A DNA stretch of 64,000 bases from Eubacteriales bacterium OttesenSCG-928-K08 (GCA_030266105.1 JAJDHH010000003.1:6269-70268), one strand, 5' to 3'; numbered from the stretch's first letter, positions 38,948 through 57,011 are shown. Numbers and translations: made by a program. Notes: a model not told the origin generated them from the letters alone.

Positions 38948-39907
38948 TCACCCGCCTATTCTGCTCATTGTTTTATCCGGTGTGAAGCCTTCCTGGTGGA
39001 ATGCGTGCCCGGAAGGTTTTTCATAAACTGCGGTGCGGATGGTTTCAAGCAGCGTGGTGTCATCCACATCGGCAAGTGCATTTAAGAGCGAAAGCTCGCT
39101 GTTTTTTCCAAGGCAGGGGCGAAGCATGCCATCGCTCATTATGCGTATGCGGTTGCATTCCCCGCAGAATTGATGCGAAATCGGGCTGATAAAACCCACC
39201 CTGCCGACAAATCCTTCGGCACCATAGTCTGCCGAGGGCTGGCCGGGATGCCGCGGCGGCAGCGGCTTTAGCCACGGCCTTGCAGCGAGTATTTCGTCGG
39301 TAGGTATGCGCTTTTTTATATCCGAATTGTCACCCATTGGCATGAGCTCAATAAAGCGCACATCCAAAGGATGCTGTTTTGCCAAATTTATAAAATCATC
39401 TATTTCGTCGTCGTTTACGCCGCGCATCAGCACGGCGTTTAGCTTTAGTGGCAGTAACCCGCAGGCGAGCGAATCCGCTATCCCTGCAAGCACGCAGGCA
39501 AGATCGCCTCCGCCTGTCATTTGAGCATAGCGCGCGGGCTGGAGAGAGTCCAGGCTGATGTTGAGCCTGGCAAGCCCCGCCTCCTTTAGCGCCCTTGCCC
39601 TGCCGGGAAGATGGATGGCATTGGTAGTCATTGCGATTTCCGAAATACCGTCAATCGCTGCAAGGCGCGAAATGATTTCTTCCACATCATGCCGCAAGAG
39701 CGGCTCCCCGCCTGTAATGCGTATTTTATTCATACCAAGCGCTGCGCAGGCGCGCCCTATGCGGACAAAATCATCCGCGCTTAGCTCCGCCCGCTTGGGG
39801 CAAGCGCCCTCATCAGAGCGGCAGTATGTGCATTTGAGCGTGCAGCGCTCCGTTATGGATAGGCGCAGGTATTCAATGCGCCGGCCTGTTTTATCAAGCA
39901 TGTGCAC
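38948..39907 (-). CDS. moaA: GTP 3',8-cyclase
   Basis: LRLSITERCTLKCTYC, TGGEP, FCGECNRIR...PCL, C-terminal IGG. Confidence 0.96.
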   Translation of the reverse strand: MHMLDKTGRRIEYLRLSITERCTLKCTYCRSDEGACPKRAELSADDFVRIGRACAALGMNKIRITGGEPLLRHDVEEIISRLAAIDGISEIAMTTNAIHLPGRARALKEAGLARLNISLDSLQPARYAQMTGGGDLACVLAGIADSLACGLLPLKLNAVLMRGVNDDEIDDFINLAKQHPLDVRFIELMPMGDNSDIKKRIPTDEILAARPWLKPLPPRHPGQPSADYGAEGFVGRVGFISPISHQFCGECNRIRIMSDGMLRPCLGKNSELSLLNALADVDDTTLLETIRTAVYEKPSGHAFHQEGFTPDKTMSRIGG

Positions 39908-39916
39908 TAGCCTCCC

Positions 39917-40393
39917 TTATTCCTTCGTTGCAGTAAAAGTGCCGGATTTTCCGCCGCTCTTTTTTAGCAGGCGGATTTGTTCAATGCACATACCCCTATC
40001 GACTGCCTTGCACATATCGTATATTGTCAGCGCAGCGGTGGAGGCCGCTGTGAGCGCTTCCATTTCGGCGCCTGTTTTGCCGCTTGTGTAAATGCTGGAG
40101 GTGATCAACAGGCTGTCATCGCCTGATTGTGCGATTTCGACATCTACGCCTTCCAACAGAATTTGATGGCACAGCGGAATGAGCGCTGGTGTGTTTTTTG
40201 CCGCCATTATGCCTGCTATTCTGGCGGTTGCAAGCACATCCCCCTTTGGCAGAGCGCCTGCAAGTATGAGCGATAGCGTTTCCGGCTGCATATGTATGAG
40301 CGCCTGCGCAACTGCTTCTCTTTGTGTGATGCTTTTTTCACCAACATTGACCATGTGGGCCTCGCCTTTTGTGTTCAAATGTGTTAATTCCAT
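39917..40393 (-). CDS. moaC: Cyclic pyranopterin monophosphate synthase
   Basis: LTH...MVNV, LIPLCH, GAEMEAL, YDMCKA, KSGGKSG. Confidence 0.96.
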
Positions 40394-40479: not shown

Positions 40480-42378
40480 TCACCTGAAGCTTCCGGGGTT
40501 GGCCGCTTCATAACCGCCCATCTCGCGGATGCGCTGTGAGAAGGCCTCGCTCTTGAGCGTTTCGAGCATACGCTGCACAGCGGGCAGTTTAAGCGCGTCA
40601 TCCGAAACAAGAAAATCGTATTGCTCCATGCAAACTGGTATAAAATCCAGCCCGTAAATCTGCGCGGCGGAGTAAATGCCAAGGCCTGCATCTGCGCTGG
40701 ATGCTTTAATCAGCGTGGCAACTGCGTTGTGGGTGAGCTCCTCGCGATCATAGCCGTATATGGTGCTCGTATCGATATTGTCCCGCTTGCATAAATAATC
40801 GCAGAGTATGCGTGTCCCCGAGCCTTTTTGGCGGTTCACATATCGCATGCCGGGCTGCGCGAGATCCGCAAGTTTTTTAATGCCGTGTGGGTTTCCCTTT
40901 TGCACGATCAATCCCTGCTGCCGCTGCACGCATGAAATGAGAGTGACGCCACCATCAGGAAAATACTTTTGAATGTAAGCTTCATTGTAGCCGCCCGTTT
41001 CCTCATCCAGCAAATGCACGCCCGCAACATGCGCTTCGCCCCGCTTGATGGCGAATATGCCACCCATGCTGCCCACATGGCTGGATGCTACGGCCGCTTC
41101 CGGCCAGCTGCGCCGCATGAGCTCGGCAATTTCATCGATTAGCGGATCGTGGCTGCCGGTGATCACCAGCGCATTTTCAATTTCTTCGATTGTGCGAAGC
41201 AACCGCACCCGCACAGTGCTGCCCGCCGGGTAACCTTCAACATTTTGTGGCACTTCCATAATTCCATCCGCCTTGGCAAAGGAGGATACAACACCCGCGC
41301 CACGTTGCAAAGGCGATGCAATTAACCTGCCCTGCACGCGACCCATACGAACGCGAACGAATTCACTGTATTTTAGCGATGAATTGAAGTTGCGCGATAG
41401 CGAAGCCTCAACATGTGTTGCCTTTGGCATTGGGCGTGCGCACATGCGGTTGAGTATTGGCTGCAGCAGATATTCAAGCACCAGTATCGCGGAGACAGGA
41501 TATCCCGGCACGCCCAGTATGGGCTTGCTGTTGACATAACCAAGTATGGCGGGTTTTCCCGGGCGAATGGCTATGCCGTGGTAGAGCACCTGCCCAACAT
41601 TGCGTATGGCCTGTGCGGCAAAATCTCCACGCCCGGCGGAGGAACCCGCGTTGAGCACAACAGCGTCGCATTCCTCCAACGCTTTGAGCACCGCGGCCTC
41701 GATTAAACTTAGCTCATCCTTGACAATCGGGTATACTTTAGCTTGAACGCCCCATTCTTCAAGCATGCCAGTAAATATAGTGGAATTAAATTCAATGATT
41801 TCACCGCTTTTCGGCTCATCTGTGGGCAGCACGATTTCATCCCCGGTGGGTATTATGCCAACAACGGGCTTTTTGACGACCTCCACGGATAATATGCCGC
41901 TTGCGAGCATTGCGCCGGTGGCGGCGGGGGAGATAACTGTAAAGCTTGGAAGTATCATCTCTCCTGCACAAATATCCTCGCCGATTTGCCGCACATGCTG
42001 CCAGGGTGTGGCGGGCGCGTGCAGCAGCACGCCACCTTCCGTTTGCACAACATCTTCGATCATAACGACAGCGTCGCATTCATCCGGCAGCGGGTCGCCA
42101 GTGTCAATGGGAACAAACTGCGCATCAGTCAGCAGCACGGGCGTGGTTTCCGTGGCGCCAAATGTCACGGCGGCATATAGCGCTATCCCATCCATAGCGC
42201 AGGCATGATAATGCGGCGCGCAGATGTTTGCATAAACCGGTGCGGCAGTAATCCGGCCGGCAGAAAGCGGAACGGGAACATGCTCGCTCTGGTGGGTTAG
42301 ACCATTTTTCTCCAACACATTGAGATAGTCCTCCACCGCTTGCTCCAATGGAACATTTGTTAGATATTGAAATGCCAT
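40480..42378 (-). CDS. moeA: MoeA fused to a C-terminal PBP/LysR-type substrate-binding domain
   Basis: AMDG, IPTGDE, RPGKP, PGYP; then GSHD, GSMGG, NRQKGSGTR. Confidence 0.92.
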   Translation of the reverse strand: MAFQYLTNVPLEQAVEDYLNVLEKNGLTHQSEHVPVPLSAGRITAAPVYANICAPHYHACAMDGIALYAAVTFGATETTPVLLTDAQFVPIDTGDPLPDECDAVVMIEDVVQTEGGVLLHAPATPWQHVRQIGEDICAGEMILPSFTVISPAATGAMLASGILSVEVVKKPVVGIIPTGDEIVLPTDEPKSGEIIEFNSTIFTGMLEEWGVQAKVYPIVKDELSLIEAAVLKALEECDAVVLNAGSSAGRGDFAAQAIRNVGQVLYHGIAIRPGKPAILGYVNSKPILGVPGYPVSAILVLEYLLQPILNRMCARPMPKATHVEASLSRNFNSSLKYSEFVRVRMGRVQGRLIASPLQRGAGVVSSFAKADGIMEVPQNVEGYPAGSTVRVRLLRTIEEIENALVITGSHDPLIDEIAELMRRSWPEAAVASSHVGSMGGIFAIKRGEAHVAGVHLLDEETGGYNEAYIQKYFPDGGVTLISCVQRQQGLIVQKGNPHGIKKLADLAQPGMRYVNRQKGSGTRILCDYLCKRDNIDTSTIYGYDREELTHNAVATLIKASSADAGLGIYSAAQIYGLDFIPVCMEQYDFLVSDDALKLPAVQRMLETLKSEAFSQRIREMGGYEAANPGSFR

Positions 42379-42409
42379 AAAAAACCTCCTGTTTAGGCAA
42401 CGCCCGCAA

Positions 42410-43636
42410 TTAGGAATTTGTGAATGGTATGATTTCGACTTGTGCGCCCTTTGGGAGTCCTTCCTGGTTTCGGGGGACGCGCAAGTAACCATCCGCCTGG
42501 GATAATAAAGTGATCAGGCCGGATTTTCCCATTATTGGCGTTGCGATAAGGCCATCCTCGCTTTGCTTAAGCTGCACCGCGACACATTCCTCGCGCCCGT
42601 GGTTGGAGGGAATAGCCTGATTAAGCATTGCCTTAAATGTAGGCTCCGGACGCTCCTTGATGCCCATAAGGCTGTCGATCAGCGGCGCGACAAATATGCG
42701 GAATATAAAATACGCTGCTGCGGGGTGCCCAGGCATGCCAAATATCGGTTTGCCGGATATTTCGCCCAATATGGTGGGTTTGCCGGGTTTGATGGCGATG
42801 CCGTGCATATGCAGCTTGCCAAGCTCCTCTATAACGCGTGGCGTTGCATCCTTTGCGCCTACGGATGTTCCACCCGAAAGCAGCACAATGTCGCACTCAT
42901 CCGCCATTTTTTTGAGGGTATCAGTCAGCCTTTTGGGATCATCCGGGCAAATGCCATAAAAAGCCGCTTTGCCGCCCGCCTGCTGCGCGGATGCGCAGAG
43001 CAAAGGGCCGTTAACATCGCGGATTTGTCCGGCAGTGGGGGTTTGATCAGGCGTGATTACCTCATCGCCTGTGGAAAGCACGCCCACCAAGGGTTGCTTT
43101 GCGACCATAACATTCGGTATGCCCATTGCGGCCAGCGCACCAATATCATGCGCGCGCAAACGGCAGCCCGCCTCCAGCACAAGCTGGCCCGCCTGCACAT
43201 CGTCACCCCGGAATATGCAATGCGCACCGGGCGCTGTGGGCTTGAGCATGCCAATTGTGCCTGCATCATACGCCTCGGTGTGCTCAATCATAACCATGGC
43301 GTCGGAGCCCACCGGCAGCTCGCCGCCGGTGGGGACATAGGCGCATTGCCCCGCCTGTATTGAAAATGGCGCGGGCGCTCCCATTTCAACCTCGCCAATC
43401 AGATTAAGAAGCGCGGGAATGGAATCCGAGCAGCCAAATGTATCCTTCGCCTGCACGGCATAACCATCCACGGATGAACGCGTAAAGCCGGGCACATCCT
43501 CCGTGGCATAAATATCGCGGCGCAACACATGCCCCAGCGCCTGTGATGCGGGGATTTCTATCTCGGGCGTCCGGGCATGCCCAAACACATCCTTAAGCAG
43601 CTGCTCCGCCTGTGCACTGGACGCTACATGCAACAT
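42410..43636 (-). CDS. moeA: Molybdopterin molybdo/tungstotransferase MoeA
   Basis: PGFTRSSVDGYA, PTGG, STGDE, SGGTS, KPGKP, PGHP. Confidence 0.94.
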   Translation of the reverse strand: MLHVASSAQAEQLLKDVFGHARTPEIEIPASQALGHVLRRDIYATEDVPGFTRSSVDGYAVQAKDTFGCSDSIPALLNLIGEVEMGAPAPFSIQAGQCAYVPTGGELPVGSDAMVMIEHTEAYDAGTIGMLKPTAPGAHCIFRGDDVQAGQLVLEAGCRLRAHDIGALAAMGIPNVMVAKQPLVGVLSTGDEVITPDQTPTAGQIRDVNGPLLCASAQQAGGKAAFYGICPDDPKRLTDTLKKMADECDIVLLSGGTSVGAKDATPRVIEELGKLHMHGIAIKPGKPTILGEISGKPIFGMPGHPAAAYFIFRIFVAPLIDSLMGIKERPEPTFKAMLNQAIPSNHGREECVAVQLKQSEDGLIATPIMGKSGLITLLSQADGYLRVPRNQEGLPKGAQVEIIPFTNS

Positions 43637-43663: not shown

Positions 43664-44365
43664 TTAGTTGCTGGTTATAGGTTTTTCCAGCTGCCAAAAA
43701 TTTAAAAATGCGCGCGCCTGTTCATTTTCCGATTGATAGAGAACCTCCGCTGTGGGGCCAAACTCAAGTATGCGCCCATGATCCAGCAATATAATTTCAT
43801 CCGCCAGCCGTTCGGCCTGCGCAAGCGCATGCGTTGCGAAAAGCAGCGTGCAGCCGGTTTTTTTATAGTAGCGCAACAGCGCCTCTTCAACAAGTTGTGT
43901 TCCTGCAATATCGGTCGCTGAGGTAGGCTCATCCAGCAGCAGCAGGGATCGTTCCTGCACGAGCATCCGCGCAAATGCCATGCGCTGCGCTTCGCCGCCG
44001 GAAAGTGTGCCGCCACGCGCGTGTAAAAGGCTGGCCATGCCCACCTCGTCGAGCGCGCGTTTTGCGCGCTCATCCGCTGAGCTTTGATTTTTTGAGAGCG
44101 CAATACATACGTTTTTTAGCACACTAAAACCATATGCGTAGGGCTTTTGCGGCAGATAACCAACGGATTGCCTACACACATCGGGTATGTGAATGCTGCC
44201 CTCATCCGGCAGCAATGTGCCCGCCAGCAGCCGCAAAAGAGTGCTTTTGCCGGAGCCGTTGGGGCCGATCAATGCGTATCGCCTGCCGGGGGTCAACTGC
44301 AATTGCGGGATATCCAGCACGCAACGGGAGGCATAGTTTTTTTTGACATTTTCAAGCCTTACCAT
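43664..44365 (-). CDS. tupC: Tungstate ABC transporter ATPase
   Basis: GPNGSGKS, LSGGEAQR, LLDEPT; follows tupB. Confidence 0.85.
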   Translation of the reverse strand: MVRLENVKKNYASRCVLDIPQLQLTPGRRYALIGPNGSGKSTLLRLLAGTLLPDEGSIHIPDVCRQSVGYLPQKPYAYGFSVLKNVCIALSKNQSSADERAKRALDEVGMASLLHARGGTLSGGEAQRMAFARMLVQERSLLLLDEPTSATDIAGTQLVEEALLRYYKKTGCTLLFATHALAQAERLADEIILLDHGRILEFGPTAEVLYQSENEQARAFLNFWQLEKPITSN

Positions 44366-45041
44366 ATAGCCCCTCCTGCAAGCGCTGTGCCACGGAGGTG
44401 ACCACAAATGCGATGATTAGCAATATCACACCCAAAGCAACAGCCAGGCCAAAATTGCCCTTATTGGTCTCCAGCACAATTGCGGTGGTCATCACGCGGG
44501 TTTTGTATTGCACATTGCCGCCCACAAGCTGCGCTGCGCCCACCTCGGAGATTGCACGCCCAAACCCCGTGAACAATACGGAAAAGAGCTGGCGCCTGCA
44601 TTCGTAGAGCGTATATAAAAGCTGCCTGCCTTTTGAAAGGCCCATGCCCAGCGCTGTTTCGCGCATCAATGGCGCCTGCGCGCTGACGATTGAGCTTGAA
44701 AGGCCAACAGCAATGGGCGTGATTAAGAGCACCTGCGCCACCACCATAGCGGTTACGCTGTATAGCAACCTGTATTGCCCTAACGGGCCTGAACGTGAGA
44801 GCAGAAAAAACACAAGCAGACCCGCAACCACAGGCGGCAGGCCCATCAATGTGTGCGTAAAGCGCAAAATGAGGCGTTTCCCGCGAAATTGGCGCATGCC
44901 TATGAATACCCCCAGCGGAATGCCTATGCAGGTTGAAATGATTGTGCTCGTAAAGCTCATCTGCAAAGTTACGCCAATTATCTGGCGCAGCTCGCCATTT
45001 TCACCAAACAGCAGCAAAAAAGCTTCGCGAATGACTTCCAT
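44352..45041 (-). CDS. tupB: Tungstate ABC transporter permease
   Basis: MGLPPVVAGL, SRSGPLG, FGRAISEVGA, VGGN...TRVMTTAI. Confidence 0.92.
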   Translation of the reverse strand: MEVIREAFLLLFGENGELRQIIGVTLQMSFTSTIISTCIGIPLGVFIGMRQFRGKRLILRFTHTLMGLPPVVAGLLVFFLLSRSGPLGQYRLLYSVTAMVVAQVLLITPIAVGLSSSIVSAQAPLMRETALGMGLSKGRQLLYTLYECRRQLFSVLFTGFGRAISEVGAAQLVGGNVQYKTRVMTTAIVLETNKGNFGLAVALGVILLIIAFVVTSVAQRLQEGLYGKA

Positions 45042-45049
45042 AACGCCTC

Positions 45050-45850
45050 CTACAGGCTTTTTGAATGTGCGCCTGTTCGTTTATTTACTAGCTGCAAAAT
45101 TTCCGCCATTATTGAAATGGCGATTTCCCCGGGCGTTTCCCCGCCAAGGTCAAGCCCTGCGGGTGTGTATACTTCGTTGAGCTGAGATTGTGATATGCCG
45201 CGCTCAAGCAGCTTTTTGAAAAGAGCTTCACGCTTTTTAACGCTACCTACCATGCCGATATATGCTGCTTGCTTTTGGAGCGCGGCATATAAGCATTCGC
45301 CATCATGCGCGTGGCCATATGTCGAAATCAGAAAGCAGGCGCCGGGCGCGATCATCAACTCGAAAATACCCTGCTCAAATTCATCCACGCGCACAAAACG
45401 ATCCGCAAGCCGCACCGCCTCGGGAATGTGCTCTGGTGAACGCGTATCCACAAGCGTTACGGCATAGCCCGCAGCCTGCGCCAGCGGGATAAGCGCCGTG
45501 CCAACATGGCCGCCACCACACAAATATAGCGCGGGGCGTGCATTGAATGTTTCTATGAATACCTGCATGCTGCCGCTGCATGCAGTATCTTCTCCGGCGC
45601 ATTCATCCACATTCTTGTAATGAAAGCAACCGTTTTTAGTTTCGTTAATGCAATGAATGGCATCCGATATGGCAGCGCGTTCAATCACCCCGCCGCCGAT
45701 CGTGCCTGAGGTTGTTTTATCCGCATATATGAGCATTTTTCCATGCCTGCGGGAAACGGAGCCCTCCGTATCGATAATTGTTGCCATGGCGCAGGCCTTG
45801 TTCTGCTGCAGCGCCAACAGCAATTTTTCCAGCAACTGCATTTTGCTCAT
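45050..45850 (-). CDS. XdhC/CoxI family cofactor-insertion chaperone
   Basis: GS..R..KM, GTIGGG, C.G, GGGHVG, YIGMVGS, P.GLDLGGETP.EIA.SI.AEI. Confidence 0.9.
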   Translation of the reverse strand: MSKMQLLEKLLLALQQNKACAMATIIDTEGSVSRRHGKMLIYADKTTSGTIGGGVIERAAISDAIHCINETKNGCFHYKNVDECAGEDTACSGSMQVFIETFNARPALYLCGGGHVGTALIPLAQAAGYAVTLVDTRSPEHIPEAVRLADRFVRVDEFEQGIFELMIAPGACFLISTYGHAHDGECLYAALQKQAAYIGMVGSVKKREALFKKLLERGISQSQLNEVYTPAGLDLGGETPGEIAISIMAEILQLVNKRTGAHSKSL

Positions 45851-47190
45851 GCTATTATTTCCTCCTTGATTGGTTTAGGGTGCAACTTTCGCCACAGCCG
45901 TATTCCGGTAAACAAGGCTGCGGCAAGGTTGCCCAGGAAAAAAGCCCCCCATACGCCAGCGGCGCCCAGATTGCAGGCGATTGCGAGCGCTGCGCCGGGC
46001 AGCGTCACACCCCAGGCGCGCAATATGGTGGACCACAGCATGGGCGTGCTTGTGCCCATGCCGCTTAATATGGATGCAAAGGCCATATCCGCCGCAATTA
46101 GCGGGTAGGATGCGCCGAATATTCGAAAATACAACACGCCTGCCTGTTGCAATGCAACATCCGGCGTTAAAATCGCCCAAAGTCGGGGCGCAAAAACGGC
46201 CGCAGGCAAAAACAGCGCCACAGTGGGCAGCACTGCCCACAGCACAAGCCGGCCTGATAAACGCCGGATAAAAGCGGGATCGCTGCTCGCTTTTAAGCGG
46301 CTAATGAGTGTAAGTGCAACGGGGGATATTCCCACAGCGCTGATGTAGAAAAACATTTCCATGCGCCCCCCAAGCCCCTTCGCGGAAACAGCAGCTGCGC
46401 CCAGCGACAATAAAAGCCCGTTTAAAACCAGCTGAGCGACGGGGTTGACCGCCTTGCTCAGCGATGCCGGTATGCACAGGCGCATGATCTCTTTGAGCAG
46501 GCCCTTTTCGCGGGCAGTGTTTTTTTGAACGCCGAACGATTTTAACGCCCGAACATATAGCACAATGCCAAGCCCGCAGCCTGCGGCCTTTGCAAGCAAC
46601 ATGCCAAGCCCCAGCCCGATAAGGCCAATTTGATTATACAGCACATAGCTCAATGTTAGCTGCAAAGGTACGTTTACCAATGTCATCCACATGCCCGCCT
46701 TAGTGTGACCCATGCCGCGTATGCCCGCGACTATTGCGCCATACAGAAGAAATACTGGGCTGCCAAGCAGCGTGGGCAACAGGTAGGATACCGCAGCGGG
46801 ATATAAGCCGGAGGCTTCCGGCGACTGAAACGAAACCGGAAGCAGCAAATATATGATGCAGGACATCAGCGCGCCACAGGCAAAAATAAGCATTAGCATC
46901 ATATTTGTGGCAGCCCGCCCGGTGCGTGGCCATTCGTTTTTTCCAACAAGTGCGCCAATAGTCGCGTTGATGCCGATCGAAAGCCCATAACCCACCGTCA
47001 CAATAAGCGAGCTATAAGGCGAGCAAAGGCTGACGATAAGAAGCTCAGAGGAGCTGTTGACGCTGACGAGCACACCCTCGTACATGCCCGCAATCCGTTC
47101 GATGACGGAAAGCAGCAGCACCGGCCATATTAACTTCCATATGGCGCGGTTGGCGTTTTCACCATCGATTTTAAGCACGGCGCTGCTCAT
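45847..47190 (-). CDS. MATE family transporter (divergent)
   Basis: About 12 TM; IWKLIWP, RGMGHTK..M, LGAAGVW; ATGA overlaps at both ends. Confidence 0.75.
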   Translation of the reverse strand: MSSAVLKIDGENANRAIWKLIWPVLLLSVIERIAGMYEGVLVSVNSSSELLIVSLCSPYSSLIVTVGYGLSIGINATIGALVGKNEWPRTGRAATNMMLMLIFACGALMSCIIYLLLPVSFQSPEASGLYPAAVSYLLPTLLGSPVFLLYGAIVAGIRGMGHTKAGMWMTLVNVPLQLTLSYVLYNQIGLIGLGLGMLLAKAAGCGLGIVLYVRALKSFGVQKNTAREKGLLKEIMRLCIPASLSKAVNPVAQLVLNGLLLSLGAAAVSAKGLGGRMEMFFYISAVGISPVALTLISRLKASSDPAFIRRLSGRLVLWAVLPTVALFLPAAVFAPRLWAILTPDVALQQAGVLYFRIFGASYPLIAADMAFASILSGMGTSTPMLWSTILRAWGVTLPGAALAIACNLGAAGVWGAFFLGNLAAALFTGIRLWRKLHPKPIKEEIIA

Positions 47191-47963
47191 ATTCTGGGCG
47201 GAATGCACACATCCCTATCCACCTCAGGGATGTTGCACACATGCAGTTCAACGCCATAAAGCCCACGCAAAAACCCTTTGTTTAATATGGCGTTTGTTTT
47301 GCTATAATGAAAATCGCAGTTTTTGCCCATAACAGCAACAGCCGCATCAAGCGAAAGCGCATGATCCGGGTTATGAGTAGTAAACACAACACCATAACCG
47401 TTTTGCGCCATTGACTGTATGATCTGCAATACGCGAATCTGATTGCCATAATCAAGGTGAGCGGTGGGTTCATCCATCAATATTATAGCGGGCTGCTGCG
47501 CAATCGCGCGCGCAATGCTGGCCTGCTGGCGCTCCCCGCCGCTGATTTCGTTGTAATACTTTTGGGCAAGGTGCGAGATGCCTATGAGTTCAAGCGCGTT
47601 TGCGGCAATTTCATAATGCTCCTGCTTGGGGCGCTGAAACATTCCAAGCCGCGGTGCACAGCCGGTCACGACATAATCAATCACGGAGTAGGCAAACGTG
47701 GGCACTATTAGCTGCGGCACAAATCCAATGGCCTGCGCCACCTCTTTTGGGGGGATTTGCCGCATATCTTTTTTATCGATACAAACGCGTCCCGAGGTTG
47801 GGAGCTGTAAATTTGCGATGCAGTTTAGCAAAGTGGTTTTTCCCGCGCCGTTTGGCCCCAATATGGCGATCACATGCCCCGGTTCGATGGAAAAGGAAAT
47901 ATCCCGGCATATCATTGGGCCGCCCAGGTAGGAAAAGCTCAGGTTTTCAATCGTAATTTTCAT
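47187..47963 (-). CDS. Type-II ABC importer ATPase (FecE/BtuD/MolC-like)
   Basis: GPNGAGKT, ISGGERQ, DEPTAHLDYGNQ, TTHNPDHA. Confidence 0.9.
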   Translation of the reverse strand: MKITIENLSFSYLGGPMICRDISFSIEPGHVIAILGPNGAGKTTLLNCIANLQLPTSGRVCIDKKDMRQIPPKEVAQAIGFVPQLIVPTFAYSVIDYVVTGCAPRLGMFQRPKQEHYEIAANALELIGISHLAQKYYNEISGGERQQASIARAIAQQPAIILMDEPTAHLDYGNQIRVLQIIQSMAQNGYGVVFTTHNPDHALSLDAAVAVMGKNCDFHYSKTNAILNKGFLRGLYGVELHVCNIPEVDRDVCIPPRI

Positions 47964-47967
47964 GGCG

Positions 47968-48984
47968 TTACCTCACACTCGCCTTTTGCCGAAATAGCAT
48001 CCATGCAAAAAACGGTGCGCCGAGCAATCCGGTCAAAATAGAAAGCGGTATTTCCAGCGAGGTTGCCGCGCGTGCGGCTGTATCCACCACCAGCATAAAC
48101 AGTGCGCCAAGCAGTGCCGTCACCGGCAGCATTTTTGTGTGATCGGAGCCTGCGAGCATGCGCCCAAGGTGCGGCATTATAAGGCCTATCCAGCCGATGG
48201 TGCCGCTGATGCTGACTGCGCTTGCCGTTAACAGGCTTGCGATAACGATAAGCCCGCCGCGAAAAATGGGCACATTCATTCCCAGTGAACGTGCTTCCAC
48301 CTCGCCAAATGAGAGTATGTTGATGCGCCACGAGAGGCACAGCAAAAGAACAACACCTATAAGGAAAATGGGGGATATGGCTACGATATCGGTGCCTTTG
48401 ATGGAGGCGATGCTGCCCATTTGCCAGAAGACTATGGCGCTCATTTCAACCGTACCCTCTGCAATAAATTTCATAACGCCAAGCACGGAATCCATAAAGC
48501 CACGCACGATCATGCCCGCCAGCACCAGCATGAGGTTGCTTGTGTTGCGCATGACGCGTGGTATCATCACTGTGAGGCAGACCGCGCCGATGCCAAAAAA
48601 GAACGCAAAAAGCTGCCGCTGCAGCACGCCAAGCCCAAGCAATATTGCAAGCGCCGCACCTACACATGCTCCCGATGTAACGCCTAAAAACTCGGGTGAA
48701 ACAAGAGGGTTTCGAAATACGCCCTGATAAACAGCGCCGGAAACTGAAAGCATGGCGCCCACCATCATGGCAGCAAATACGCGCGGAATGCGGATGACAA
48801 ACAGCACGGTTTCCATTGTTTCATCCGTTGAAGTGTTTAAGCCAAGGCGGCTGCCTATTGCCCGCAGCACATCGAATGGGTTCATGCTGTAACGCCCTAC
48901 GCACAAGGCAAGCATTGCCCCGCCAACAAGCAGCGCAGCCAGTAATATAATTAACCTGATAAAGGAGGTTTTGTTTTTCATCAT
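47968..48984 (-). CDS. Type-II ABC importer permease (FecCD/BtuC/MolB-like)
   Basis: RIPRV, QGVFRNPLVSP..LGV.SGA, G.IGWIGL..PH, EIP..I.T...GAPFF. Confidence 0.92.
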   Translation of the reverse strand: MMKNKTSFIRLIILLAALLVGGAMLALCVGRYSMNPFDVLRAIGSRLGLNTSTDETMETVLFVIRIPRVFAAMMVGAMLSVSGAVYQGVFRNPLVSPEFLGVTSGACVGAALAILLGLGVLQRQLFAFFFGIGAVCLTVMIPRVMRNTSNLMLVLAGMIVRGFMDSVLGVMKFIAEGTVEMSAIVFWQMGSIASIKGTDIVAISPIFLIGVVLLLCLSWRINILSFGEVEARSLGMNVPIFRGGLIVIASLLTASAVSISGTIGWIGLIMPHLGRMLAGSDHTKMLPVTALLGALFMLVVDTAARAATSLEIPLSILTGLLGAPFFAWMLFRQKASVR

Positions 48985-48992
48985 AAATACCA

Positions 48993-49028
48993 CACGAAAT
49001 GCAAAAGCGTGCGCTTTTGCATTTCGTG
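48993..49028. repeat. Perfect intercistronic inverted repeat
   Basis: CACGAAATGCAAAAGCG-TG-CGCTTTTGCATTTCGTG. Confidence 0.8.
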
Positions 49029-49045
49029 CATTTCATAACAATCGT

Positions 49046-50890
49046 TTATTTTATGCCAAGCTCTTCTGCCGTAAAGGTGCGGCCATATACGAGAGTATAA
49101 TATGCGTCCACATCCGCCATAAGCTCGTCTTTGGTGTATAGCTCCGGGTGCAGGTTGTTCGTTGCCCAGCAGACGCCCAGGCAGCATGATGCTGTCGGAT
49201 AATCCCATGGCTCCAGCGCAGAGGGGAATTGATACACCGCTTTGTTTTTGACGGCATTTGTTGCAGTCCAGCCCGCATCGTTGAGTATATCGTCCACTGT
49301 GTAGTCGGCGTATGCGGGAATCCAGATTACATCCGGGTTCCAAACGATGATCTGCTCGAGATTGACCTCGGCAAACTCACCCTTTACATCAATGCCGGTA
49401 ACGGCGTTTTTGCCGCCTGCGGCTTCAATGATGTAGCTTTGAATCATCGCTTCGGGCGCAACGGTCAGCATGGAGCTGCCGCCAAGGAACATTACGCTTG
49501 GTTGCCTGCTCGCCTTTGAGGAGACTTCCTTGGCTTTTGTCACCTGATTATCGAAGAATTCACAGATTTCAGCCGCGCGCGCTTCCTCGCCCAACGCCTT
49601 CGCAACCAGTGTCAGCGAGTTTTTGATGGTGTCGAAGCTTTCCGTATTGGGCAGCGCAACAATGGCGGGCACACCCACTGCCTCGTATTGCTCCGCCTGA
49701 TCGGTGAAACGCTCGGGCAGTATCGCAAGGTCGGCGCCAATTGAGGCCACCGTTTCAAAGTTGATGTTTTTGCCCTTGCCAATGGAGGTCAGGCTATCAA
49801 AATTTTCGATGACATACTGGTATAGGCCATCCGCCATTTCCTTGTTGCCAAAGCCTGCAAGGTACTTCCCGCCTCCGCCAAGCACGATGGCGGTGTTCAT
49901 GGATGGGTTGTGTGTGCCAACCACCTTTGTGGCAGCACCGGGCAGCGTTACCGTGCGGCCAACAACGTCAGTCAGCGCAATTTCACCCGCCATGGTGAAG
50001 AAAAGCTGCTCGCCGTATTCAGCAACGCCATATGAGTCTATCAATTGCGTGGCTTTTTCGCCCTGCATCCATTCGATGAAGGCGTTTGCGCCATCGATGT
50101 TGGTGTCCGCCCATTTGTCGGGGGAGATTGCCAGCATGGAGTATGTGTTTTTCATCTCATCAGAACGCTCCAACAGCAGATTAAGCTGTGGGCGCATTTC
50201 ATGCGCGAGATAGGTGGCCTTGTCGCTAAGCACATATGCCTGCTCTTCGGCGGCCATTGTAATGCACGCGCCCATGCCCTGCCCGGCGGAAACATACCAG
50301 CTATCCTTTTCGGGGTTGGGTTCGATTTGCGCGGCAGCCCATATTTTGTTCTCCGCGTTGTGCGTGCCGCTGCTGTCGCCGCGGGAGATGAATGTAAACC
50401 CGCCTTCGGCAATGGCTTTAAACGCCTCGGTGGCGTTTGCAGCGCTTCCAACGCCTGCCGGATCGTCCGCCGGGCCAAGTATCACAAAATAGTTGTACAT
50501 GAAGGGAATACGCTCAGCCGCAAAGCCTTCCGATATGAATGTTTCCTCTGCGGATTTTGAGTGCACGAGCAGCGCGTCGGCATCGCCTGTGCGGCCTTTT
50601 TCAATCGCTGCGCCTGTGCCTGCGGATGTGATTTCAAGTTTGTATCCGGTGTCCGCCTCAAATTCCGGCTGCAGGTAGGGCAACAGGCCGGAGTCATTAA
50701 CGGATGTTGTTGTTGAAAGCCTTATGATTGGGTTGGCGGGCCCTTCGTCAGCCGGTTCAGGGCTGGGCGCCACATCAACAACGGGCGCTTCGGGTGTTGG
50801 ATCTGCTGATGGTTGTGTTGCAGGCGTGCATGCAACCATGCCAAGCACAAGCAACAACGCAAGAATAATAGTGAGTGGTCTGTTCTTCAT
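49046..50890 (-). CDS. tupA: Lipoprotein: TupA tungstate-binding domain fused to a helical-backbone (Peripla_BP_2) binding domain
   Basis: Lipobox MVAC; RLSTTTSVNDSGLL, GTG.A, SRGDSSGTH, GQGMG; from about aa 300 TDVVGRTVTLP, NFETV, NLEQIIVWNPDVI, AVKNK.VY. Confidence 0.88.
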   Translation of the reverse strand: MKNRPLTIILALLLVLGMVACTPATQPSADPTPEAPVVDVAPSPEPADEGPANPIIRLSTTTSVNDSGLLPYLQPEFEADTGYKLEITSAGTGAAIEKGRTGDADALLVHSKSAEETFISEGFAAERIPFMYNYFVILGPADDPAGVGSAANATEAFKAIAEGGFTFISRGDSSGTHNAENKIWAAAQIEPNPEKDSWYVSAGQGMGACITMAAEEQAYVLSDKATYLAHEMRPQLNLLLERSDEMKNTYSMLAISPDKWADTNIDGANAFIEWMQGEKATQLIDSYGVAEYGEQLFFTMAGEIALTDVVGRTVTLPGAATKVVGTHNPSMNTAIVLGGGGKYLAGFGNKEMADGLYQYVIENFDSLTSIGKGKNINFETVASIGADLAILPERFTDQAEQYEAVGVPAIVALPNTESFDTIKNSLTLVAKALGEEARAAEICEFFDNQVTKAKEVSSKASRQPSVMFLGGSSMLTVAPEAMIQSYIIEAAGGKNAVTGIDVKGEFAEVNLEQIIVWNPDVIWIPAYADYTVDDILNDAGWTATNAVKNKAVYQFPSALEPWDYPTASCCLGVCWATNNLHPELYTKDELMADVDAYYTLVYGRTFTAEELGIK

Positions 50891-50895
50891 TTGAG

Positions 50896-50996
50896 TTCTC
50901 TCCTTTTCAAATTGGGAGGCATTGCCGTTTCCAGCAATACCCTATCGTGGAAAATCCATGGCGCTAACGCTTTAGGATTGAACCATCGGAGTAGAA
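50896..50996 (-). ncRNA. Moco/Wco riboswitch, translational type
   Basis: Minus strand CTCCGA...CCTAA...CATGG...GGTATTGCTG-GAAA-CGGCAATGCC-TCCC...AAAGGAG; the P1 3' strand is the tupA RBS. Confidence 0.88.
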
Positions 50997-51178
50997 TTTG
51001 GATGCATCCTGTACAATGTTATAGCATTTTTTCAATATAATCAAGCTTCACATCACATTTTATAGACAACAAACTACAACATTTTTGTACTATACATAAT
51101 ATATGAAAAAATTGACCTAAAGCAAAAAAATGGTCATTTTGAGTGCGAATATAGCCGGTTTAGATAACAAACGGCAAA

Positions 51179-51303: not shown

Positions 51304-52044
51304 TTATGTAGCGGAGTAAACATCGGCCATAACAAGCGCAAGCTGTTTTTTGCGGCAGGCATCACAAAGTGTGCTGGGCTCGGTGCCAGCTTTTTCTGCT
51401 GCAAAGTTGAGCTCCTCTTGCGTGCCCATTTGTGCGCCGCAGCTTGCGCAGTGAACAAGTGTGAACGTTTTTTCCCACACAGTGCGTGTGGTTTCATTCT
51501 CATGATATTCAATGGCCTTTGTGGGGCAAACACGTGCACAGCTGCCGCAGCCAATGCAGTCGGCAGGCGGTTCATTAAAAGGCGGAGCAATTTCTTTTGT
51601 GATGCCACGGTTTACCGTGGCGATTGCCCCTGCGCCCAATGTGCTGCATGCGCGCACGCATAAGCCGCAAATTATGCACTTACCATCTTTTTCATTTAGC
51701 TTGTCAAGTGCGGGGGCGCTATAGGCCTTGCATAGTGCCGCGATGATTTCGCTTTGTGGCGCGCGCTTTTGGAGCAGCCTGAGTATTATACCACGCTGCT
51801 GTTTGATTTTTTCATTGTTGGTGTGCACCTCGCATTCGTTCAAAACGGGATAAATGCACGACACCACGGTTTTGCTCCAACCACGCTCAACAACCTCCAC
51901 AATACACACACGGCAGCAGCCCTGGCCTAATAACCCTTCGTGGTTGCAGAGCGTGGGAATATATATGCCGTTGCGCCTGGCAACTTCCAATAAAAACTCA
52001 CCCGGTTCACATGTGCAGCTTTTTCCATCTATCACGATATTCAT
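51304..52044 (-). CDS. BfuA/HydA-like FeS subunit without catalytic H-cluster
   Basis: IPTLC...G.CRVCIVE...SC 2Fe-2S; KCIICGLCVRAC, CIGCGSCARVCP; C-terminal CxxC..CxxC. Confidence 0.85.
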   Translation of the reverse strand: MNIVIDGKSCTCEPGEFLLEVARRNGIYIPTLCNHEGLLGQGCCRVCIVEVVERGWSKTVVSCIYPVLNECEVHTNNEKIKQQRGIILRLLQKRAPQSEIIAALCKAYSAPALDKLNEKDGKCIICGLCVRACSTLGAGAIATVNRGITKEIAPPFNEPPADCIGCGSCARVCPTKAIEYHENETTRTVWEKTFTLVHCASCGAQMGTQEELNFAAEKAGTEPSTLCDACRKKQLALVMADVYSAT

Positions 52045-53843
52045 TTTTGAGCCCTCCCCTGTGCCAGAATGGCCTCAAAGCGGCAGGCTTGCCGGCAGCT
52101 TCCGCACGCTATGCAGCTGCGTTGGTCAATTTCATAAGCTTGCCCTTTTTCGCCGCGAATGGCATTAACCGGGCAATTTTTCTTGCATAAGCCGCAGCTT
52201 TTGCATTTGTTTTTTTCAATAACAAATGTGGTGAGCTTTGAGCAAACACCCGCAGGGCAGTATTTGTTATGTATGTGTGCCTCATATTCATCGCGGAAGT
52301 ATTTTAGCGTGGTTAACACAGGATTTGGCGCGGATTTACCAAGCGCGCATAGCGAGCTTTCCGCAATTGTTTGGCAGAGCTGCTCCAGCAGCTCCAAATC
52401 GCCATCTTGGCCACGGCCTTCGCATATTCCGGTCAAAATATCCAGCATGTGCCTAAGCCCTTCGCGGCAGGGTGTGCATTTCCCGCAGCTTTCCTCTGTG
52501 AGGAATTTTACATAATAGCGCGCTACTTCAACCATGCAATCCCTGTCGTCCATCACGATCATGCCGCCAGAACCCATCATCGCGCCATATTGTGTCAAGG
52601 TGTCAAAGTCAACAGGTAAATCGAGCATGGCGCTGGGGATGCAGCCGCCGGAAGGCCCACCAGTTTGCACGGCTTTAAAGGGCCGGTCATCTATTATTCC
52701 GCCGCCAATGTCAAAAATCAGGTGGCGGAGGGTGGCGCCCATTTGCACTTCGACAAGTCCTGTGCGTTTAACCTTGCCAACCAGCGCAAACACCTTTGTT
52801 CCGCTGCTTGTTTTTGTGCCAAGCGTTGCATACAAAGGGCCGCCATCGCGTATGATGACGGGAATGTTGGCGAAAGTTTCAACATTGTTTAGCACTGTGG
52901 GGCAATCCCACAGGCCGCGCTGAACTGAACGGATATATTTTGCGCGGGGTTCGCCCACACGCCCTTCAATCGAGGCCATTAGTGCGGTGCTTTCGCCGCA
53001 AACAAATGCGCCGCCCCCGCGAACAACCGAGAGATTTAAAGCCTTGCCGCTGCCCATGATGTTTTTGCCCAGGAAACCAAGCTCAAGCGCGGACGCTAAC
53101 GCAGCATTTACATTTTTGAGTGCGAGGCCATATTCATCCCGAATGTAGAGGAAACCTTCGGTCGCGCCTATTGCCAGCGCACAGATTGCCATGCCCTCAA
53201 TCACGCTATGCGGGTCGCCTTCCAGTATGGATCGATCCATAAACGCACCGGGGTCGCCTTCGTCGCCATTGCACACAACATATTTGGGGAACACATCGTA
53301 TCCGGCGGCGGTTCTCCATTTGCGGCCTGTGGGAAAGCCCGCGCCGCCCCGGCCGCGAAGGCCGGAAAGCTCAACCTGCTCTATAATTTCACTGCCTGAC
53401 ATGTTGAGCGCTTTTGTAAGCGCTTCATATCCGCCCCTGGAAATGTAATCCTCAATGTTTCCAGGATCAATTTCGCCAATGTTGCGCAGCGCAATCTTAT
53501 ATTGTGGCTTGTAGAATGGGTTTTCTAGCTTGCTTTTTATGCGTTCGCCATTTTCGTTTTTGTAGAGCAGGCGCTCAACAACTTTGTTTTCCTGCAGCGC
53601 GCTTAATATATCCTGCGCATCATGAGGCTTGACTTTATAGTAAGAAATATCGTCCGGCAATATTTGAACGATTGGGCCATTCTCGCAAAATCCGTTGCAG
53701 CCCGTGCGCTTAATGTGCGCCTTAACCTCAATTTGCCCCATTACGCCCATCTTGTTTATGGCATTTTCAAGCGCCTGAACAACCTGTTCACTTCCGTTTG
53801 CCAGGCAGCCGGTTCCGCAGCATACTAATAGGGTGCGCTTCAT
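52041..53843 (-). CDS. BfuB/HydB (NuoF-like) FMN/NAD subunit
   Basis: N-terminal thioredoxin-like 2Fe-2S, GRGGAGFPTG, NGDEGDPGAFMD, GGPSGG, ESCGKCTPCREG, H....CPAGVC, 2x[4Fe-4S]. Confidence 0.93.
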   Translation of the reverse strand: MKRTLLVCCGTGCLANGSEQVVQALENAINKMGVMGQIEVKAHIKRTGCNGFCENGPIVQILPDDISYYKVKPHDAQDILSALQENKVVERLLYKNENGERIKSKLENPFYKPQYKIALRNIGEIDPGNIEDYISRGGYEALTKALNMSGSEIIEQVELSGLRGRGGAGFPTGRKWRTAAGYDVFPKYVVCNGDEGDPGAFMDRSILEGDPHSVIEGMAICALAIGATEGFLYIRDEYGLALKNVNAALASALELGFLGKNIMGSGKALNLSVVRGGGAFVCGESTALMASIEGRVGEPRAKYIRSVQRGLWDCPTVLNNVETFANIPVIIRDGGPLYATLGTKTSSGTKVFALVGKVKRTGLVEVQMGATLRHLIFDIGGGIIDDRPFKAVQTGGPSGGCIPSAMLDLPVDFDTLTQYGAMMGSGGMIVMDDRDCMVEVARYYVKFLTEESCGKCTPCREGLRHMLDILTGICEGRGQDGDLELLEQLCQTIAESSLCALGKSAPNPVLTTLKYFRDEYEAHIHNKYCPAGVCSKLTTFVIEKNKCKSCGLCKKNCPVNAIRGEKGQAYEIDQRSCIACGSCRQACRFEAILAQGRAQK

Positions 53844-54301
53844 GGTGTCACCTCCCTGTATGCGTCAATGATCTCTGGCAGCTTTTCAAGTGTGACCTTG
53901 CTGTAATAGGTTTCATCCACAACCATCACAGGCGCAATCGCACATGAACCCAGGCAGTTAACAAGCTCCAACGAAAAAAGGCCATCCTGGCTTGTTTCGC
54001 CCGGAGCTATGCCAAGCAGGCGTTCAATTCCGTCAATAAGCTGGTTTGCGCCCCGTATGTGGCAGGCCGTACCATCACAAAGCTTAATTATGTGCTTACC
54101 CTTTGCATCCAGGCTAAGCGCCTTATAGAAGGTTGCCATGGAGTAAAGTTGAGCGGTTTTGCAACCGATATGCTGGGCTAGCAGCTCAATCCCCTCGCGT
54201 GGCACATGCTTAAACTGGCGCTGCATGTCCTGCATGGCAGCAAGCGCATAACGCAGCTCTTTTGGGTATTTTGTAATGAGGGAAAGAATTTCTTCTGTCA
54301 A
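53840..54301 (-). CDS. BfuC/HydC (NuoE-like) 2Fe-2S subunit
   Basis: ATFY, CDGTACH, NCLGSCAIAP; TTG start. Confidence 0.92.
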   Translation of the reverse strand: MTEEILSLITKYPKELRYALAAMQDMQRQFKHVPREGIELLAQHIGCKTAQLYSMATFYKALSLDAKGKHIIKLCDGTACHIRGANQLIDGIERLLGIAPGETSQDGLFSLELVNCLGSCAIAPVMVVDETYYSKVTLEKLPEIIDAYREVTP

Positions 54302-54336
54302 TCTGATTCCACCCTTCGTTTGCGTTTAAAGTTTGT

Positions 54337-54609
54337 TTATCCTCCAGCAACCAGCGGGAATACAGCAACGACATTTTGCTCACTGAGCGTAGTTGCCACT
54401 CCATTAAGGTGCACAATATGGCGCCCATTAACAAGCACGATTGCGTCAGGCCCCAGCGCTTGCCTGTCCTGCGTGAGCAGTTTTTCGTAAAACGCGGGGA
54501 ATTTTTCGCAAAGCTCAATTAAAAGCGCCAACACATCCTTTGGGGGAGCTATGTTCATCTGCGCGCATTTTGTGATTTCCCGGTAGGTTGCAAAAAACTT
54601 CACAGTCAT
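54337..54609 (-). CDS. MoaD/ThiS family sulfur carrier
   Basis: VKFFAT.R, VLVNGR, FPLVAGG. Confidence 0.9.
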   Translation of the reverse strand: MTVKFFATYREITKCAQMNIAPPKDVLALLIELCEKFPAFYEKLLTQDRQALGPDAIVLVNGRHIVHLNGVATTLSEQNVVAVFPLVAGG

Positions 54610-54666
54610 ATCAACATGTTAAACTGCCGCCACGCACAGCAGGCGCTATGCGTGGCGGTCTTTCTC

Positions 54667-56463
54667 CTATATGCTTAATTGTTCGAGCTTATCGGCGGTG
54701 GGTACGCCTTCCTTATCCCAGCCGCGCAAAGTGTAGTATTCCTCCAGCATTTCGTAAAGCTCCGCAACCTTGCCCTTTGCAGGGCCGCTTGGCAGCTTTT
54801 CACGCAGCAGGCGCGGCGGCAAAGTATCCTTCTCAACACCGGCGGCAATGTTAAAGCGCTTCTCCAGGTTCCAGCAGCGCTCGCCTTTGAGGAGAATTTC
54901 TTCATCCGTCTCATCTGAGCCTATCGCCTCGCGGTATTGCGCAGAAAGCTCAGGCAATCCAATGCCAAATGTTGTAAAAAGGCAAAGGCCCAAGCTATCC
55001 ACAAGCGCCGTCAGGTCTTGGAACAGCTTTAACAGGGCGGGCTTTCCTTCTGTTTCAAGCGGGTCGGTCTTGAGCGGAACGCCGAGAATTTCTGGCGATG
55101 TCAGGTAACCGCGCACGTGGCAGCCGCCACGGTTGCTTGTTGCATACTCAAGCGCCATGCCCTGGATGGCCCGGCCATCATAGGCGGGCATTTCCTGCTT
55201 TTTGACTGACATTGAAAGCTCGGGGTGCCCATATTTTTCTGCCAGACGGTAGGAACCCAAAGCGAGTATTTCACCAAAACCTTCGCCCTTGCCAACGGCC
55301 TCGGTGAGGTTTACGACTGCGTGCGCATCGCCAAACCGCAATGGGAAGCCGATATCTTCCTCAGGGATGGCGCCCATTTCAAAAAGCTCCATCGCACAGG
55401 CGATTGTTGCGCCAAGCGTAATGGGGTCCATGCCGTATTCATTGCACAGGAAGTTCGCCTTGCAGATTGCCGCAAGATCGTTCACGCCACAATCCGCCCC
55501 AAAGGACCAGCCTGCTTCATATTCAGGGCCTTCGCCAAAGGAGGCAAACGGGCCATCCGGCACGCGGGTCACACGGCCGCAGGCAATTGAGCAGCCAAAG
55601 CAGCCTTTGTTTTTAACGAGGTAAGTATCCGCGAGCCGTTCGCCGGAGGTATCGTCCGCCTTATCAAAAACTGCGCCGTCGCGCCAGTTGCGAAGCGGGA
55701 GCGCACCACTTTCGTTGATAACGTTGACCAGCACCTCCGTGCCAAGCGCAGCAAGGCCTGCGCCCGAAACCGGGTGAGCCTTGAGTTTAGCGCGCGCATC
55801 GGCCATCGCATCCATAAAGGGCTCGGGGCGCACAACGGTTACGGAGCCTGTGCCGCGCACAACGACTGCCTTGAGCTTTTTGCTGCCCATCACAGCGCCC
55901 AGGCCGCCACGGCCTGCAGCACGGTGCTTGTCGTTCATGACTCCGCTGTAAAGGCAGCCGCGCTCACCGGTTGGGCCAATGCAGGCCACACGGAAGGATG
56001 CGCCGCAGGTTTCGTTGAGCATATCGGTGGTTTCATAAACGGTTTTGCCCCAAAGCTCTTCGGCATCCCTAAGCTCCACAATATCGTTATGGATAAACAG
56101 ATAGACGGGTTTTTCGCTCTGGTTTTCGAATATGATTCCATCGTAGCCGGCATATTTTAGCTCGGGGCCAAAGTGCCCGCCGGAGTTTGCTGCGCCAATT
56201 GTGCCTGTTAGCGGCGCTTTGGCGACAACCTCGTAGCGCCCTGAGCAGGATGCGGCAGTGGCGGTCAGCGGCCCTGTCATAAATATTAATTTATTGTCGG
56301 GGCCAAGCGGATCCACATTGGGGTCAACTTCATCGCAAAAATATTTTGTGCCCAGTCCGCGTGCGCCTACATAATCGTTAGCCGCTTTCATGTTTAAGGG
56401 TTCTTTTTTAATTTCGCCCGTTGCCAGGTTTACACGAAGTAATTTTCCAATCCAGCCGCCCAT
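54667..56463 (-). CDS. aor: Aldehyde:ferredoxin oxidoreductase (true-AOR-like tungstoenzyme)
   Basis: [67 protein letters not shown]. Confidence 0.95.
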
Positions 56464-56465
56464 GA

Positions 56466-56939: not shown

Positions 56940-57011
56940 TGTTCCTTTTCCCGCGAAAAACAACGCGGGAATCCACCTCCTTTTCTAAAATATGGCATTG
57001 GAAGGTTGAGG

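Follow-up and report, generated by a model that had tools for sequence, protein, structure and literature searches.

A predicted two-headed binding lipoprotein joins TupA to a MolA-like class III domain in an operon encoding two types of ABC importer

Introduction

How can one substrate-binding protein supply two ATP-binding cassette (ABC) importers that work by different mechanisms? The question is raised by a stretch of 64,000 nucleotides from Eubacteriales bacterium OttesenSCG-928-K08 (GCA_030266105.1, JAJDHH010000003.1:6269-70268), hereafter the window, in which a single gene encodes a predicted lipoprotein of 614 amino acids (aa) that carries a TupA domain followed by a MolA-like class III binding domain, within an operon that specifies both a type II permease with its ATPase and the type I importer TupBC. 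The window is part of a metagenome-assembled genome (111 contigs, 59% complete), and its host is a gut-type anaerobe. Type I importers require a loaded, closed binding protein and type II importers bind an empty one tightly, and one polypeptide serving both types would be a ready-made probe of docking freedom. We find that the fusion gene is real, with two conserved heads under riboswitch control, and we read it, with a probability of roughly 60% given its sequence and gene context, as two complete binding heads on one anchor, each serving its own importer for tungsten uptake.

The fusion protein and its junction

We found that Pfam assigns PBP_like_2 to residues 58-277 (E = 7.4e-42) and Peripla_BP_2 to residues 363-557 (E = 1.4e-28) of the fusion, that TupA is the best NCBIfam family for residues 56-297 (2.1e-58, 197.8 bits), and that from residue 304 onward the NCBIfam matches are to class III binding-protein families only. 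The N-terminus consists of a hydrophobic helix (residues 4-19), the sequence M-V-A-C21 and then a disordered stretch rich in Pro and Ala; residue 21 is likely the lipobox cysteine, although other residues are more usual than Met at position -3 of a lipobox. The AlphaFold2 model, based on a 34-row alignment, has a mean predicted local distance difference test score (pLDDT) of 91.6 and a predicted template modelling score (pTM) of 0.71, with residues 22-37 below a pLDDT of 50 and two compact domains thereafter. Foldseek comparisons, with template modelling scores (TM-scores) normalised to the target, give the TupA head a two-lobed class II-type fold (0.91 to 5my5, 0.90 to 3lr1) and place the C-terminal head close to 4hn9 (0.88), MolA 3psa (0.81) and 4ovk (0.80); a 22-residue helix (residues 436-457) bridges the lobes of this second domain in the model, fitting the class III fold. 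The preliminary description of this locus, made from the sequence alone, had proposed one 614-aa lipoprotein uniting TupA, with its TTTS motif, and a class III domain, and the Pfam matches, the NCBIfam matches and the fold model all bear out this pairing of domains.

The junction reads L296-F-F-T-M300, then A301-G302, then E303-I-A-L-T-D-V, and the M300 codon occupies 49991-49993. A stand-alone TupA in the related locus L045, 78% identical to the N-terminal head, terminates exactly at LFFTM followed by a stop, and stand-alone class III homologues carry a signal peptide, lipobox and Pro/Ala-rich tether of their own before their conserved part opens at EI..TDV. The linker of the fusion is therefore about two residues long, which agrees with the earlier placing of the junction near 49990 with almost no linker, and two whole proteins are joined, the second of them without its own export signal.

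The same junction is present in four further protein clusters (71-86% identical) in a search of 5.8 billion proteins. One of these, P0002, is a full-length fusion of 589 aa that is 71% identical to that of the window, and its gene sits in L035, a contig of a named public genome with the gene order of the window; the other three (P0003, P0006 and P0007) are fragments ended by contig limits, 75-86% identical over the aligned part, in which the junction is also present. Furthermore, positions 49600-50400 are spanned by one independently assembled Logan contig of a public run (2198 bases), which differs from the window at 10 of 801 bases without any insertion or deletion; eight of the ten differences are synonymous, and the two nonsynonymous ones, S286A and V200I, are both conservative. 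The possibility of an assembly artefact had been raised in the preliminary description, and a metagenome assembly in 111 contigs gives some ground for supposing that assembly or gene calling united two adjacent genes. Against this stand the in-frame junction repeated in four other clusters from different sources, the syntenic L035 and the independent contig without an insertion or deletion across the junction, and we regard the chance of an artefact as negligible.

Two other candidate interpretations of the junction region were rejected. A separate class III protein starting at M300 is ruled out by the lack of a Shine-Dalgarno-like run in the 30 bases before the ATG, and also by the signal peptide that such a product would lack. 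A second lipobox or cleavage site at the junction is ruled out as well, there being no Cys near residues 296-305.

Two conserved heads and their importers

The solved matches of the N-terminal half are 3muq, 3lr1 and 5my5, with E-values of 1e-55 to 1e-59. The oxyanion site of Desulfovibrio TupA is described as comprising TTTS, His59, Arg118, Thr124 and Asp170 (PMC5517513), and upon alignment to 5my5 we observe that all of these residues are kept in the TupA head, as TTTS60-63, H110, R170, T176 and D223. When compared with TupABC, known from Eubacterium acidaminophilum and, for TupA, from Desulfovibrio alaskensis G20 (5my5), the N-terminal head has the same fold at 40% identity and the same TTTS plus His, Arg, Thr and Asp site, TupB- and TupC-like genes lie in the operon, and relatives of the window operon keep the classical order tupABC after a riboswitch of the same type. 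Unlike in TupABC, the TupA of the fusion has no stop of its own and runs on into another binding domain, tupA and tupB are set apart by four or five genes of a different importer, and the Tup proteins of the fusion operon score below the NCBIfam equivalog cut-offs.

For the class III head, the best solved relatives are 4hn9 (2.8e-44) and 4ovk (4.5e-27), followed by MolA HI_1472 (1.3e-19), which is the closest that is functionally characterised. The first two, from Eubacterium eligens and Veillonella parvula respectively, are structural-genomics deposits titled as iron or periplasmic binding proteins with no further function attached, and both stand alone, unlike the fusion. The head is 57-66% identical to many stand-alone proteins from several phyla, and all 15 of the 15 invariant family columns are present in it, in a 24-sequence alignment that includes the head as its first row.

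The importer encoded beside it points in the same direction, with MolB HI1471 (2nq2_A) as the best solved relative of the permease (8.6e-70, 239 bits), ahead of HmuU (4e-49, 171 bits) and BtuC (3e-42, 148 bits), and MolC HI1470 (2nq2_C) as that of the ATPase (2.1e-43), which makes the type II half of the operon a MolBC-A relative. The analogy with Haemophilus MolABC drawn in the preliminary description thus gains the support of MolB, MolC and MolA as nearest solved or characterised relatives. MolBC-A of Haemophilus influenzae (HI1470-HI1472) carries molybdate and tungstate (PMC4031551), metals that agree with the riboswitch control of the module here, and MolA aligns over the whole length of the class III head. 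In contrast to MolBC-A, the class III head is only about 21% identical to MolA and differs at three of the four ligand residues, the module here often has a fourth gene, and its binding protein is fused to TupA.

Riboswitch control and the class III family

Rfam model RF01055 detects a molybdenum cofactor/tungsten cofactor (Moco/Tuco) riboswitch aptamer ahead of the fusion gene at 61.1 bits (E = 3.2e-12), where the gathering score is 36, with model positions of about 59-72, which form P3, deleted. The 3' strand of its P1 helix spans the Shine-Dalgarno sequence AAAGGAG and extends to the ATG of the fusion gene. Regulski et al. (2008) report that P3-less Moco RNAs correlate with tungsten-cofactor metabolism (PMC2408646). 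Neither the riboswitch at the fusion start nor the presence of stand-alone homologues in the same regulon formed part of the preliminary description, and the two together strengthen the case for a tungsten or molybdenum function.

A second P3-less Moco/Tuco riboswitch lies at 57147-57034 (minus strand), ahead of a six-gene cluster (51304-57147) directly upstream of the transport operon. The cluster encodes a polyferredoxin-like protein (165 aa), an aldehyde ferredoxin oxidoreductase (598 aa), a MoaD-like protein (90 aa) ending in GG, NuoE-like and NuoF-like proteins and an Fe-S protein of 246 aa, and its sequence suggests a tungsten aldehyde oxidoreductase combined with an NAD-linked module.

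Relatives of the class III head were collected from one genome per species, which gave 141 confirmed relatives, and the best 80 loci were kept. Searching these by tblastn with the window proteins, we observe that the permease gene adjoins the binding-protein gene in 79 of the 80 loci, L047 ending before it, and that the ATPase gene comes next wherever the contig extends far enough. A Moco covariance model, R1, was seeded with eight Rfam-confirmed motifs cut to Rfam coordinates; the motifs of L038, L045 and L035, which are long or weak, were excluded from the seeds and were then found by R1. With this model, 35 of the 80 loci (6 of the 35 being seeds) have a same-strand Moco motif no more than about 600 bases ahead of the first gene, and the proportion is 34/53 outside Chloroflexota and a distant Clostridium group; Rfam's own model, given 20 loci, detects the motif in 10. 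The 45 loci without a motif include 22 from Chloroflexota and 4 from the distant Clostridium group (36% identity), and a minimum of 3 start at or within the first gene itself.

Among the 60 loci with at least 900 bases past the ATPase gene, the gene that follows it encodes XdhC in 12, DUF364/DUF4213 in 36 and neither in 12. Published genome-context analysis links DUF364 to genes for molybdate and tungstate transport (PMC2954201), and a further link to them comes from cofitness with nitrogenase genes in Methanococcus, where the authors caution about polar effects (bioRxiv 10.1101/2024.03.05.583561). Additionally, the module adjoins moeA and moaC in L062 and an aldehyde oxidoreductase cluster in L072. 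The riboswitch, the fourth gene and the neighbours are three independent kinds of context, and all of them place the module in tungsten or molybdenum metabolism. The module is common in Bacillota, Chloroflexota, Atribacterota, Actinomycetota and Spirochaetota, is mostly Moco/Tuco-controlled outside Chloroflexota, and its holders include the cultivable Eubacterium limosum and E. callanderi (L038 and L040), in which the riboswitch is followed by the class III, MolB-like, MolC-like and XdhC genes in that order. Where the routes of tungsten and molybdenum uptake are counted in PMC11980592 and PMC5517513, the passages concerned name only Mod, Wtp and Tup. If the module does carry tungsten or molybdenum, gut and digester anaerobes would have an uptake route missed by such counts, and the physiologically puzzling MolBC-A of Haemophilus would gain a large family whose regulation offers independent evidence of what it transports.

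Several loci show further arrangements. In L042 (4590-8700) and L044 (1685-5803), a single Moco riboswitch stands ahead of a permease gene bracketed by two paralogous class III genes, whose products are 54% and 61% identical to the head of the window; as far as the gene order tells, this is another way to give one type II importer two heads. The loci L030/L041 of genome G023 have a fdh-mobA-fdhD-DUF1576 stretch followed by tupB-tupC, the class III gene, the permease and the ATPase. L094 (12745-16850), from Alkalibaculum sporogenes, carries DUF364 and, a few genes on, DUF134 and a gene of the NifX/NafY-type "dinitrogenase iron-molybdenum cofactor" family.

Proposed function and alternative readings

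We propose that, when tungsten cofactor is low, the riboswitch would free the ribosome-binding site of the fusion gene, and that, when cofactor is plentiful, the P3-less riboswitch would sequester this site and shut off the operon. The derepressed cell would make the two-headed lipoprotein, both importers, the cofactor chaperone and the cofactor pathway; the TupA head would hand tungstate to TupBC and the MolA-like head tungstate or molybdate to the MolBC-like importer, with the 35-residue disordered tether giving reach. From the sequence we infer what the class III head binds, that each head docks to its own permease and that the fusion brings some advantage, and the gain may lie in a fixed stoichiometry, in a single anchor or in the proximity of the two systems. 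The roles suggested in the preliminary description, namely separating tungsten from molybdenum, serving two ranges of concentration, or salvage of a chelated metal or a pterin cofactor, may each apply.

A number of observations weigh against this assignment of one importer to each head. The two-residue linker may hinder the docking of one head, and the mutual orientation of the heads is uncertain, with a pTM of 0.71 against a mean pLDDT of 91.6. The ligand residues of MolA are given as Y114, K221, R264 and Y301 in a preprint (10.64898/2026.10.15.759412), and only one of the four is kept in the HMMER alignment, Y301 corresponding to Y564, while Y114, K221 and R264 align with R394, M482 and Y527; the offset of 21 between paper and chain numbering was derived from the spacing of the four residues. 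Furthermore, TupA, TupB and TupC all fall under their NCBIfam equivalog cut-offs, at 197.8 of 400 bits for TupA (family NF041772), 169.5 of 320 and 114 of 400, respectively. A strict pairing of one head with one permease also fails for G023, because there a class III gene, itself stand-alone, comes directly after tupB-tupC, and a search of that genome, 84% complete, found no TupA; judging from these genes, either its TupA lies in the missing part or TupBC may work without one. Finally, the genome of the window has no second PF01497 match and no second PF12849 or FecCD match over cut-off in the 59% that is present, which leaves room for a further binding protein in the remainder.

Both heads might instead work on different forms of the metal, the class III head and the MolBC-like importer bringing in complexed tungsten or molybdenum (thiotungstate or thiomolybdate of sulfidic habitats, a chelate, or a pterin-bound cofactor or precursor) that is passed to XdhC or DUF364, in which case the lipoprotein would collect two chemically different metal sources. 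This is a tentative possibility that we hold to be somewhat unlikely. Large chelates or cofactors are the usual cargo of type II importers that have class III binding proteins, as the solved relatives for B12, haem and siderophores illustrate, XdhC proteins act as chaperones of the cofactor, and riboswitches for other coenzymes often control salvage transporters; in accordance with such a route, an XdhC or DUF364 gene stands directly after the ATPase gene in 48 of the 60 loci, and the MolA ligand residues are poorly conserved. Nevertheless, MolBC-A is the nearest characterised system for each of the three parts and transports molybdate and tungstate, the operon and its relatives retain the full cofactor biosynthesis set, and XdhC may be present only to mature the neighbouring tungsten aldehyde oxidoreductase. 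A further reading, in which only one head is functional and the other is a relic spacer or anchor, the TupA head for example acting as a substitute signal peptide and tether, appears very improbable to us. It would account for the way the fusion takes the place of the signal peptide and Pro/Ala-rich tether native to the class III protein, for the short linker and for the rarity of such fusions, which comprise five protein clusters from one lineage. However, the TupA ligand residues are all kept, as are the family-invariant residues of the class III head, both fusion genomes of known context (the window's and that of L035) still have tupB and tupC, a second TupA was not found in either of these genomes, strain differences are mainly synonymous on both sides of the junction, and the fusion has persisted through divergence to 71% identity.

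A bolder version of the two-importer reading, which we think unlikely, would make the class III head, the MolBC-like importer and XdhC or DUF364 an undescribed route for complexed tungsten or molybdenum that is switched by a tungsten-cofactor riboswitch, with the lipoprotein parked on the type II importer holding the TupA head beside TupBC and so coupling the two importers. Such parking is conceivable because type II importers grip their binding protein tightly even when it is empty (PMC4245157).

Returning to the reading of two heads with two importers, tandem binding domains are familiar from GlnPQ and OpuA, type I importers in which they are fused to the permease. Like these, and like the TupA-TupA, TupA-ModA-like and TupA-TupB fusions found in the databases, the lipoprotein of the window has more than one binding domain per polypeptide, and tungsten and molybdenum binders are often duplicated or fused, as those database fusions show. 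GlnPQ, OpuA and the TupA-type fusions combine domains of one structural class with one type I permease, whereas the fusion here combines a class II-type head with a class III head, whose cognate permeases belong to two mechanistically different importer types. The preliminary description knew of no described TupA-class III fusion, and we likewise found none in the literature searched, with both importer types in one operon, nor any riboswitch-controlled MolBC-like module with XdhC or DUF364; most subscription journals and the supplements of PMC2408646 were outside the scope of the search.

Rarity and origin of the fusion

The fusion is absent from all 60 relatives examined at one per genus, and no other protein matching both heads occurs among the best 150 of the representative library. 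A Pfam scan of 18 multi-domain or long library matches revealed TupA-TupA, TupA-ModA-like, TupA-TupB and tandem class III proteins, the rest being proteins in which the binding domain is accompanied by an SLH, LysM, copper amine oxidase N-terminal, cytochrome c or GGDEF-HD domain. Among the TupA-domain fusions, P0126, P0187, P0209, P0239, P0188 and P0199 have as partners ModA-like domains, the TupB permease, or cytoplasmic GGDEF-HD or PAS domains, and P0159 has a cytochrome c domain along with a weak molybdopterin-oxidoreductase match.

Upon comparing operons, we observe that those of four relatives from the same family (G012, G035, G005 and G006) start with tupA-tupB-tupC, a TupB-like gene lying directly after tupA in each, and that moeA and moeA/PBP come next in the three whose contig continues, with moaC added in G012; the contig of G005, L033, stops inside tupC. 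A Moco motif precedes tupA in all four, with E = 0.0085 for L033. The order in L035 is fusion-FecCD-ATPase-XdhC-tupB-tupC-moeA-moeA/PBP-moaC, and in both the window and L035 the class III head, permease, ATPase and XdhC lie between tupA and tupB, with MATE in the window alone. In locus L045, tupA is a separate gene, and a class III gene that encodes a lipobox of its own lies about 1.1 kb downstream of it. A quick tree search of 79 class III domains, with Shimodaira-Hasegawa-like approximate likelihood ratio test (SH-aLRT) support only, groups together the three fusions that have a whole class III head (SH-aLRT 96). Since the relatives carry riboswitch-tupABC-moeA-moeA/PBP, which may represent the ancestral operon, a cassette would have been inserted between tupA and tupB. 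The simplest reading of these gene orders seems to be a single insertion of a four-gene Mol-like cassette (binding protein, permease, ATPase and XdhC) after tupA, with an in-frame join by which the cassette's binding protein would have lost its own signal peptide and tether. The moeA and moeA/PBP pair is kept in 4/4 relatives that reach that far (G012, G035, G006 and L035), and the two products may, on sequence grounds, be a metal-selecting insertase pair.

Operon layout and other features

The operon comprises 11 genes, in the order fusion, MolB-like permease, MolC-like ATPase, MATE, XdhC, TupB, TupC, MoeA, MoeA-PBP, MoaC and MoaA, all on the minus strand, with gaps of at most 86 bases or overlaps, and the gene after it is convergent. 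The coordinates are collected in Table 1.

Table 1. Features of the fusion gene and its operon, in window coordinates.
Feature	Position	Strand	Basis
P3-less Moco/Tuco riboswitch aptamer	50884..51003	-	Rfam RF01055
Two-headed lipoprotein gene, 614 aa	49046..50890	-	Open reading frame call, Pfam, NCBIfam, AlphaFold2, Foldseek
Signal peptide with likely lipobox Cys21; disordered tether, residues 22-55	within 49046..50890	-	Sequence, AlphaFold2
TupA domain, residues 56-300	49991-50725	-	
Linker A301-G302	between 49991 and 49984	-	
MolA-like class III domain, residues 303-614	49049-49984	-	
Hairpin of 18 pairs with weak T tail, between fusion and permease genes	48991-49030	-	
Type II FecCD-family permease, MolB-like	47968..48993	-	Pfam FecCD 1.5e-78
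Type II importer ATPase, MolC-like	47187..47963	-	Pfam, NCBIfam, solved relatives
MATE-family transporter, overlapping both neighbours	45847..47208	-	Pfam
XdhC-family cofactor chaperone	45050..45850	-	Pfam, NCBIfam
TupB-like type I permease	44352..45041	-	NF038017 222 bits, over cut-off 100
TupC-like ATPase	43664..44407	-	Pfam, NCBIfam
MoeA	42410-43636	-	
MoeA fused to PBP_like (PF12727) domain	40480-42492	-	
MoaC	39917-40393	-	
MoaA-like radical SAM gene	38948-39907	-	Named from sequence only

Type II permease and ATPase genes and the type I TupBC genes thus share one operon that encodes no transport binding protein other than the fusion, exactly as had been described beforehand. The MoeA-PBP_like protein is presumably cytoplasmic, because its binding-protein-like domain is fused to MoeA and no signal peptide is evident. 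The true start of the TupC-like ATPase is probably the internal Met15, and the best NCBIfam match of the XdhC-family protein is an aldehyde oxidoreductase maturation factor, at a score under the cut-off of that family. The hairpin between the fusion and permease genes overlaps the called GTG start of the permease, and it may act as an intercistronic stabiliser or as a partial terminator that tunes the ratio of binding protein to permease.

In none of the 80 related loci, L035 included, does the MATE gene have a match at E<=1e-10, and it therefore looks like a lineage-specific insertion. It is an exporter-type gene within an uptake operon; in Eubacterium callanderi (L040), the gene after XdhC encodes an MFS transporter instead. 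Elsewhere in the window, at 16120-16239 on the plus strand, we observe a match to the tetrahydrofolate (THF) riboswitch at 37.2 bits, against a gathering score of 36.

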